In this document: piece after piece, positions 63,094 to 63,282 of the stretch
Layout of the letters: every line of letters begins with the position of its first letter
Position numbering within the stretch: position 1 is the stretch's first letter
Source: an archaeon GW2011_AR20
GTDB lineage: Archaea; Nanobdellota; Nanobdellia; SCGC-AAA011-G17; GW2011-AR20
Length of the DNA: 64,000 nt
Reading direction: 5' to 3'
Assembly (NCBI GenBank): GCA_000830315.1
Contig: CP010426.1
Span: 60,670 to 124,669, forward strand
Notes under the pieces: generated by a model
The model's database searches: none
Told to the model about the DNA's origin: nothing
What the model saw: only the letters and a program-made list of their open reading frames with translations
Translations under genes and position numbers: made by a program

Positions 63094-63137
63094 TTCTTCA
63101 ATAGTTTTATAAATTAAATTTTCTTATCCTATTCTGT

Positions 63138-63238
63138 GGGGATATGGTCTAGCTTGGAATCCTAACAAAAATTAGGGTGAGTAATTATGATGAGAGGTTT
63201 GGGACCTTTCGACCCCGGTTCAAATCCGGGTATCCCCA
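63138..63238 (+). tRNA. tRNA-Pro (anticodon TGG) with about 28-nt non-canonical intron in the D-arm
   Basis: Acceptor GGGGATA/TATCCCC + A; intact anticodon arm AGAGG-TTTGGGA-CCTTT (63193-63209); T-arm CCCGG-TTCAAAT-CCGGG; 48 nt between acceptor and anticodon stem versus about 19 expected, containing hairpin CCTAA-CAAAAA-TTAGG. Confidence 0.55.
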
Positions 63239-63282
63239 CTTATTACGAAACCTTTTTAAAACAATTGTATACTAAATAAAAC

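Follow-up and report, generated by a model that had tools for sequence, protein, structure and literature searches.

There are good descriptions of archaeal tRNA genes with introns at non-canonical positions, 20/21 and 22/23 among them (PMC4090602), and D-arm introns in archaea have already been described as well (PMC12397907). In this study we analyze a tRNA-Pro(UGG) gene that very probably carries an intron of this type in its D loop. The gene lies in a stretch of 64,000 nucleotides (nt), referred to below as the window, from the genome of archaeon GW2011_AR20, a tiny archaeon from groundwater, which has been treated as part of the Woesearchaeota subgroup Woese-3 (PMC5994134) and which NCBI places among unclassified Archaea. 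One protein encoded in the window, 382 amino acids in length, matches a GW2011_AR20 protein without any difference. Positions are counted from the first letter of the window, + and - denote the strands, a caret marks a splice point, and the loci used for comparison carry L numbers.

The hallmark of archaeal splice sites is a motif termed bulge-helix-bulge (BHB), defined by a 4-bp central helix and two 3-nt bulges on opposite strands, each located 3' of its helix strand (PMC4090602). Two D-loop introns with this type of organization are the closest described cases. The intron of the Methanopyrus kandleri pre-tRNA-Glu(UUC) is located at 20b/21 in a relaxed HBh' motif, and its mature product is supported by RNA-seq (PMC5829648); the D-loop intron of the Aeropyrum pernix pre-tRNA-Thr(UGU) is reported to be spliced efficiently in vitro by the A. 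pernix splicing endonuclease EndA (PMC5829648; PMC3241643). Like these two, the intron in the window is located in the D loop, has its splice sites in bulges beside a short helix, and is predicted to be removed by EndA. However, the HBh' motif of M. kandleri is cut poorly by enzymes without the specificity loop, whereas the motif in the window combines a 4-bp helix with two bulges of 3 nt each. In contrast to both cases, it is located at 19/20 of a tRNA-Pro, belongs to a mesophilic DPANN host, and is predicted from sequence.

The same tRNA species is interrupted in Pyrobaculum islandicum, whose tRNA-Pro(UGG) has introns at 25/26, 37/38, and 56/57 (PMC4090602). As in the multi-intron tRNAs of the Thermoproteales, our case involves tRNA-Pro(UGG) and a non-canonical BHB intron, and the occupied positions vary among relatives; it differs from P. 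islandicum in that the host belongs to DPANN and not to Crenarchaeota, the positions are different, and the gene in the window has a single intron. Raised tRNA gene disruption has been reported in DPANN, and a link has been drawn to variants of EndA into which an L3 loop is inserted (PMC5829648). The non-canonical introns of ARMAN-2/Micrarchaeota and Nanoarchaeum come from the same superphylum as our host (PMC3239211, PMC3488258, PMC5829648), but those studies focus on relaxed motifs and on the enzyme, unlike the strict motif found here. One Woesearchaeota genome has been surveyed with tRNAscan-SE (PMC5829648), and our literature search, whose coverage was incomplete, found no description of a conserved 19/20 tRNA-Pro intron family in Woesearchaeota.

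The elements of the gene and of its upstream region are as follows.

63106-63113, + strand: TATA-box-like element TTTATAAA, 32 nt 5' of the tRNA start
63138-63238, + strand: pre-tRNA-Pro(UGG), 101 nt, from G1 to the discriminator A73
63138-63144 paired with 63231-63237, + strand: acceptor stem, GGGGATA with TATCCCC, 7 bp, followed by A73 at 63238
63138-63157, + strand: 5' exon, tRNA positions 1-19, in the register given by the BHB geometry and by homologues that fit this register alone
63158-63184, + strand: predicted intron AAUCCUAACAAAAAUUAGGGUGAGUAA, 27 nt, in the D loop between G19 and U20
63185-63238, + strand: 3' exon, tRNA positions 20-73
63193-63209, + strand: anticodon arm AGAGG-TTTGGGA-CCTTT (anticodon TGG, 63200-63202)
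Within the 3' exon: T arm CCCGG-TTCAAAT-CCGGG, of standard form

The 5' exon contains the 5' strand of the acceptor stem, U8, G9, the D-stem strand GUCU, and A14 G15 C16 U17 U17a G18 G19. The 3' exon starts with U20 U20a A21, the 3' strand of the D stem (UGAU), and G26, continues with the anticodon arm including G37, and ends with the 4-nt variable loop CGAC, the T arm, the 3' strand of the acceptor stem, and A73; CCA is not encoded at the 3' end of the gene. Reading the sequence, we confirmed the first-pass annotation, made from the letters of the window, in its description of an intact and contiguous acceptor stem, anticodon arm, and T arm, and in the 48 nt (63145-63192) that it counted between the acceptor and anticodon stems, where about 21 would be expected for a D arm of this type. 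The hairpin CCTAA-CAAAAA-TTAGG that it had noticed is present at 63161-63176 and extends to 7 bp (AUCCUAA with UUAGGGU).

When positions 63158-63184 are excised, a sequence of 74 nt remains that ARAGORN identifies as tRNA-Pro(tgg). This spliced form has the canonical D loop AGCUUGGUUA, U8, A14, the G18G19 pair of residues, A21, G1-C72, G15/C48, G53-C61, the anticodon UGG with G37, A73, and a standard T loop (TTCRAAT), all of which are features of tRNA-Pro(UGG). The predicted exon junction reads GCTTGG^TTATGATG (in the RNA, ...GCUUGG^UUAUGAU...). The TTTATAAA element is likely to be the promoter of the pre-tRNA; TTTATA is located at -32 to -34 here, and likewise in L005-L008 and L010, which include orthologues with and without the intron. 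The tRNA region is identical across three independent metagenome contigs (L001-L003).

The first-pass annotation had proposed that a BHB motif be looked for around 63160-63190, and one with 3-4-3 geometry was found there. Its parts are listed below.

63150-63151 with 63186-63187: outer helix h, pairs A14-U20a and U13-A21, two A-U pairs running into the D stem
63152-63155, + strand: exon strand of the central helix, GCUU (tRNA positions 15-17a), present in the minimum free energy (MFE) fold
63156-63158, + strand: 5' bulge G18 G19^A, 3 nt in the MFE fold, with the predicted cut between 63157 and 63158
63159-63178, + strand: inner helix h', AUCCUAA with UUAGGGU, 7 bp, loop CAAAAA
63179-63182, + strand: intron strand of the central helix, GAGU, partner of GCUU
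63183-63185, + strand: 3' bulge A A^U20, placed from geometry, with the predicted cut between 63184 and 63185

A canonical archaeal intron is inserted after position 37, with positions 32-35 forming the central helix, which means that each cut falls past the second nucleotide of its bulge; the cuts given above follow this rule. The helix of GCUU with GAGU and the bulges GGA and AAU correspond to the strict BHB, and both flanking helices reach at least 2 bp, with 7 bp in h' and two pairs in h. None of the relaxed variants (hBH, HBh', BHL) describes the motif, given that two bulges and two flanking helices are present. The central helix of 4 bp, the bulge GGA, and the hairpin of 7 bp all appear in the MFE fold of the 101 nt (z = -2.76), with pair probabilities of 0.70-0.74 in the central helix and 0.72-1.0 in the hairpin. 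These results support a refined site for the intron, namely 27 nt in the D loop between G19 and U20, and on the evidence of geometry and homologues we infer that its boundaries hold to plus or minus 1 nt.

The strict geometry also bears on the enzyme. The first-pass annotation had stated that an intron at such a position requires the broad-specificity endonuclease. Broad specificity has been tied to the relaxed motifs hBH, HBh', and BHL (PMC5829648, PMC4090602), and since the motif in the window has two 3-nt bulges around a 4-bp helix, this requirement is not supported.

Standard programs do not recover the gene properly. ARAGORN with default settings reported nothing at the locus, and its sole call in the window was a tRNA-Thr elsewhere. 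In its intron mode the program returned a tRNA-Ile(tat) with a 7-nt intron, a nonsensical result of forcing the intron into the anticodon loop, and the 'tRNA-Glu' and 'tRNA-Phe' that it called for other interrupted genes of the window are artefacts of the same kind. With the Rfam tRNA model the score was 29.1 bits (threshold 29), and this was reached by using 63175-63181 as a false acceptor strand with mismatches. A transfer-messenger RNA was rejected, its Rfam score of 23 bits over 63138-63241 (threshold 47) reflecting tRNA-like ends only, and with E values of up to 10 allowed, Rfam still gave no match to an intron family here. When the 64 kb were scanned for T arms with a closing acceptor stem of 7 bp, four tRNA-like genes came out, the tRNA-Pro among them, which speaks against a chance arrangement. 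The gene is neither split nor permuted, both exons being contiguous and collinear within 101 nt, and at just 27 nt the insert does not fit a group I or group II self-splicing intron, which would span at least a few hundred nucleotides and include a ribozyme core.

The comparison with related genomes was anchored on the neighbouring L37Ae gene. A protein search with L37Ae, keeping one genome per species, yielded 80 loci, mostly from metagenome-assembled genomes of Woesearchaeota and Nanoarchaeota, which were thus picked blind to the tRNA. In most of them a tRNA-Pro gene is located directly upstream of L37Ae. In the window the flanking genes are archaeal, with FtsZ, SecE, Spt5, and ribosomal protein L11 before the tRNA-Pro and L37Ae and prefoldin after it. 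The closest relatives differ from one another, with L005, L007, and L008 lacking the insert and L006, L009, and L010 having one at the same site. The spliced tRNA of the window is identical to that of the intronless L007 at 70 of 75 positions; they have the acceptor stem in common, and their D loops differ in length by 1 nt. Further D-loop inserts among the protein-anchored loci were found in L025, L031, L077, L078, and L080. The exact L37Ae protein was also present in 86 blocks of the collection index, but that look-up gave same-species contigs with an identical tRNA region and was therefore uninformative on covariation.

A pattern scan of metagenomes, designed to exclude the window's own sequence, added 68 loci, about seven of which are chance matches, and provided about 45 metagenomic genes with the insert. 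The 53 genes compiled have the insert at exactly the same position, with lengths of 15-59 nt (median 27), and about 50 distinct tRNA-Pro genes of related Woesearchaeota and Nanoarchaeota carry the 19/20 intron. In L115 and L144 the spliced tRNA body matches that of the window at 71 of 74 positions while the hairpins differ, and the D-loop intron is also found in tRNA-Pro(GGG) genes (e.g., L118, L120, and L121). All homologues keep GG^N at the 5' splice site, and 52 of the 53 compiled keep AA^Y at the 3' splice site, the exception being L077 with AU^C.

To measure covariation, each gene was placed in a fixed frame of 34 columns (the 5' strand of the D stem, A14, positions 15-19, five nucleotides from the start of the intron and ten from its end, and the eight exon nucleotides that follow), and 48 distinct rows were aligned without gaps. 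Nine protein-anchored sequences in this set were chosen without reference to the tRNA, and the search pattern used for the rest left free the inner helix and the choice of Y17 and its R partner. The proposed pairs are formed in 92.9% of the cells, compared with 72.9% in shuffles, none of the 500 shuffles reaching the observed value, and sliding the partners by 1-3 columns lowers pairing to 29-47%. Nine of the 13 pairs are changed on both sides. The four inner-helix pairs nearest the motif are 91.7% paired, and each shows every Watson-Crick type. At the central-helix pair of position 17 there are 34 U-A, 11 C-G, and 3 C.A combinations and never U.G (Fisher p = 1.6e-8). The outer-helix pairs are A-U in 41 of 48 homologues and U-A or U-G in 43 of 48. 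In an alignment that is anchored on the predicted splice sites, and with part of the central helix fixed by the pattern, the BHB is thus maintained by compensatory change in related genes. As the first-pass annotation had suggested, the locus holds a tRNA-Pro(UGG) interrupted at a non-canonical D-arm position, given that excision produces a canonical tRNA-Pro and that the motif covaries in about 48 homologues.

Inserts at other sites are also seen among the tRNA-Pro orthologues: in the anticodon loop (37/38), in the T loop (after TTCAAA), in the T stem, and in the acceptor/5' region. They were found in L010, L011, L022-L028, L031, L038, L039, L048, L052, L054, L061-L063, L066, L077, L078, L080, L084, and many of L085-L152. 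A gene may have up to three inserts, as in L077 and L145, which combine D-loop, 37/38, and T-loop inserts. In L031, L060, L061, and L068, partial direct repeats of the tRNA-Pro lie beside the gene: the 3' end is present twice in L031 and L060, the first 27 nt are duplicated in L061, and in L068 the 3' end together with about 60 nt of downstream sequence recurs roughly 150 nt on. These repeats look like attachment-site duplications left by elements that integrate into the tRNA gene.

Several observations weigh against a spliced D-loop intron. The outer helix consists of two A-U pairs with a pair probability of about 0.1 and is weak. The structure that combines the cloverleaf with the BHB has a free energy of -28.7 kcal/mol, 8.6 less stable than the MFE fold at -37.3, and that fold, unlike the cloverleaf, pairs 63145-63149 with the variable region. 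The minimal BHB pattern occurs about 3 times per 100 nt in this AT-rich window, so the motif alone is not significant, and strong BHBs (a 4-bp helix with an inner helix of at least 5 bp) number 317 in the window, where shuffled sequence gives about 220. A second register of the intron, 63159-63183, also conforms to the minimal BHB in the sequence of the window. In the metagenomic set the search pattern largely forced three of the four central-helix pairs, and the alignment used for covariation was anchored on the predicted splice sites. Finally, a tblastn search with an approximate Methanocaldococcus jannaschii EndA query found no EndA in the 64-kb window. Because minimal and strong motifs are frequent and a second register fits, the case is built on the genomic context and on the relatives.

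That second register is the alternative closest to our interpretation, as it implies the same intron with both splice sites shifted by 1 nt: an intron of 25 nt, bulges GA^A and UA^A, a central helix of CUUG with UGAG, and a mature tRNA of 76 nt with a 12-nt D loop. We regard it as improbable. ARAGORN still reports a tRNA-Pro for several junctions moved by 1 nt, which leaves room for it, but L009 and L010 cannot form this register, since it costs them either their inner helix or the fourth pair of the central helix, and over the 48 sequences the favoured register is 92.9% paired while partners slid by plus or minus 1 reach 38-40%. With the shifted register the D loop would also exceed that of the intronless L007 by 3 nt, whereas the favoured register gives an excess of 1 nt. 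The failure of the standard tRNA finders would also be expected of a decaying pseudogene with an unspliced 27-nt insertion, another gene then supplying tRNA-Pro(UGG). This is quite unlikely: all conserved tRNA features are intact outside the insert, the promoter box and the adjacency to L37Ae are conserved, and the region is identical in independent assemblies. Moreover, the inserts diverge freely in sequence and length, yet numerous compensatory changes preserve their BHB geometry, a pattern that selection for splicing predicts and decay does not.

The mature tRNA could instead retain the hairpin, which would enlarge the D loop or act as a binding site and never be excised; the hairpin is thermodynamically very stable. 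We give this little credence. Among orthologues the insert measures anywhere between 15 and 59 nt, and it is missing from close relatives, the BHB geometry at its base is conserved whereas nothing in the hairpin itself is, and a retained insert would part G18G19 from A21 and the 3' strand of the D stem. No retained D-loop insert turned up in PMC4090602, PMC5829648, and PMC12397907, where inserts of the D arm are described as introns, although no search was aimed at one. Least likely of all, and close to negligible, is a truncated tRNA poor in D arm that spans 63175-63238 only. The Rfam alignment takes this form, with its 29.1 bits just above the threshold, but it needs two acceptor-stem mismatches and a loop of just 4 nt in the D arm, while a perfect 7-bp acceptor partner exists at 63138-63144 and the 5' part is conserved in all orthologues.

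The reading that we favour with high confidence is therefore a functional tRNA-Pro(UGG) gene of the Woesearchaeota (DPANN) with one archaeal D-loop intron after G19, predicted from the gene and its homologues to be spliced by proteins. We infer that the pre-tRNA is transcribed, cleaved, and ligated through the following steps. The gene would be transcribed from its own TATA-box promoter, and in the precursor nucleotides 15-17a of the D loop and the intron's 3' end would together form the 4-bp helix, flanked by the 3-nt bulges and set between the 7-bp intron hairpin and the short outer helix. EndA would recognize the BHB by its shape and cut past the second nucleotide of each bulge, between 63157 and 63158 and between 63184 and 63185. 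The RNA-splicing ligase RtcB, encoded 15 kb away in the window, would then join the exons and would probably circularize the 27-nt intron, after which RNase P, RNase Z, and the CCA-adding enzyme would finish a mature tRNA of 74+3 nt. The 725 kb of fetched loci, searched by tblastn with the same M. jannaschii query, likewise contained no EndA match; in the window a weak match at 45773-45817 was discarded, as it falls inside an open reading frame that Pfam assigns to adenylate kinase.

The ligase gene is itself interrupted. It is located as follows.

46915-48442, - strand: RtcB RNA-splicing ligase, Pfam PF01139, E = 7.9e-143
48224-48193, - strand: first frame-breaking insert, 32 nt, BHB-like fold with the helix CCAU paired with AUGG
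48109-48078, - strand: second frame-breaking insert, 32 nt, BHB-like fold with the helix GGUU paired with AACC and an 8-bp hairpin

The two inserts leave the gene in three reading-frame pieces. Cutting past the second bulge nucleotide removes an in-frame UGA and restores a single RtcB frame of 487 amino acids (aa), with the predicted exon junctions CATTG^GGGCTAC and GGGTTTG^ACATCAAC. The repaired protein aligns end to end with the RtcB of Pyrococcus horikoshii (E = 1e-172), and both junctions are ungapped in this alignment (MPDGHwGYGFP and GIGfDINCG), with the conserved MPDGHWGYG and GFDINCG exactly restored. The broken gene was found on 39 contigs, so it is not an assembly error; the annotation of archaeon GW2011_AR20 lists it as a hypothetical protein. 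In the closest relatives RtcB is an uninterrupted gene of 485 aa. In L153-L155 a homologous 32-nt insert is present at the first site only; its hairpin shows a compensatory change (UCUCU with AGAGA versus UUUCU with AGAAA), and the splice point, apparently shifted by 2 nt, still yields H-W-G-Y-G. From these folds and restored frames, the inserts are probably BHB introns in the mRNA of the ligase itself. BHB introns in protein-coding genes have a known precedent in the crenarchaeal cbf5 (PMC2738675), and our literature search found no report of BHB introns in RtcB. Directly downstream of RtcB there is an open reading frame of 138 aa (46467-46883, - strand), at whose position the relatives L155, L156, and L160 encode archease (PF01951), a cofactor of RtcB.

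A second interrupted tRNA gene of the window appears to carry four introns. It was missed by both Rfam and default ARAGORN, and its parts are given here.

44422-44583, + strand: tRNA-Leu(UAA), 162 nt
44437-44451: tRNA-Leu segment of 15 nt at position 15/16, relaxed motif, D loop
44459-44479: tRNA-Leu segment of 21 nt at position about 20a/21, relaxed motif, D loop
44490-44513: tRNA-Leu segment of 24 nt at position 30/31, strict BHB
44521-44537: tRNA-Leu segment of 17 nt at position 37/38, strict BHB

Removing the four segments leaves a perfect class II tRNA-Leu(UAA) of 85 nt. A 2014 review gave three as the maximum number of introns per tRNA (PMC4033280), which four introns, if true, would exceed. 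No orthologue of this tRNA-Leu was found in the fetched loci or beside RtcB in relatives, where the synteny of the neighbouring tRNA-Thr is kept and that of the tRNA-Leu is not.

That neighbour, at 44632-44717 (+ strand), is most likely a tRNA-Thr(GGU); it has a 13-nt insert in the anticodon loop and U73, and it scores 61 bits with Rfam. Its syntenic orthologue in L160-L162, a relative with a 77%-identical RtcB, lies near ADK and Fic genes, is about 102 nt long, and seems to have an extra insert near 26/27. The protein gene that precedes the tRNA-Pro encodes ribosomal protein L11 (62302-63093, + strand), with 263 aa in the window and 252-259 aa in the relatives L001-L003; about 100 aa at its C terminus form an extension rich in lysine, glutamate, alanine, and proline (…KEIKKQIEKEKALAEKLAEKKPEVAKVEAPKEGEAAATPVVGGKVPAGK…).

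The tRNA-Pro intron in the window is a well-supported but ordinary case of a known phenomenon, and it leaves the understanding of how such introns work unchanged; the interrupted RtcB gene and the tRNA-Leu of the window are less usual. Its consequences are of another kind. The gene is invisible to default finders, so genomes of this lineage appear to be without tRNA-Pro(UGG), and such genes should be recoverable with the signature ...A-R-C-Y-U-G-G ^ N - hairpin - 4 nt complementary to 15-17a - A-A ^ Y.... As one orthologous gene at one genomic site, with the intron present or absent in close relatives, it also offers a clean system for the gain, loss, and sliding of introns. If EndA and RtcB splice the inserts of the RtcB gene, production of the ligase would depend on the ligase, in a self-referential loop, and RtcB would join the crenarchaeal cbf5 as a rare protein-coding gene with BHB introns. 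Of the four tRNA genes in the window, three are interrupted, and on balance we lean towards the view that this lineage of Woesearchaeota may use endonuclease/ligase splicing unusually widely, with the tRNA-Pro intron as one visible part.

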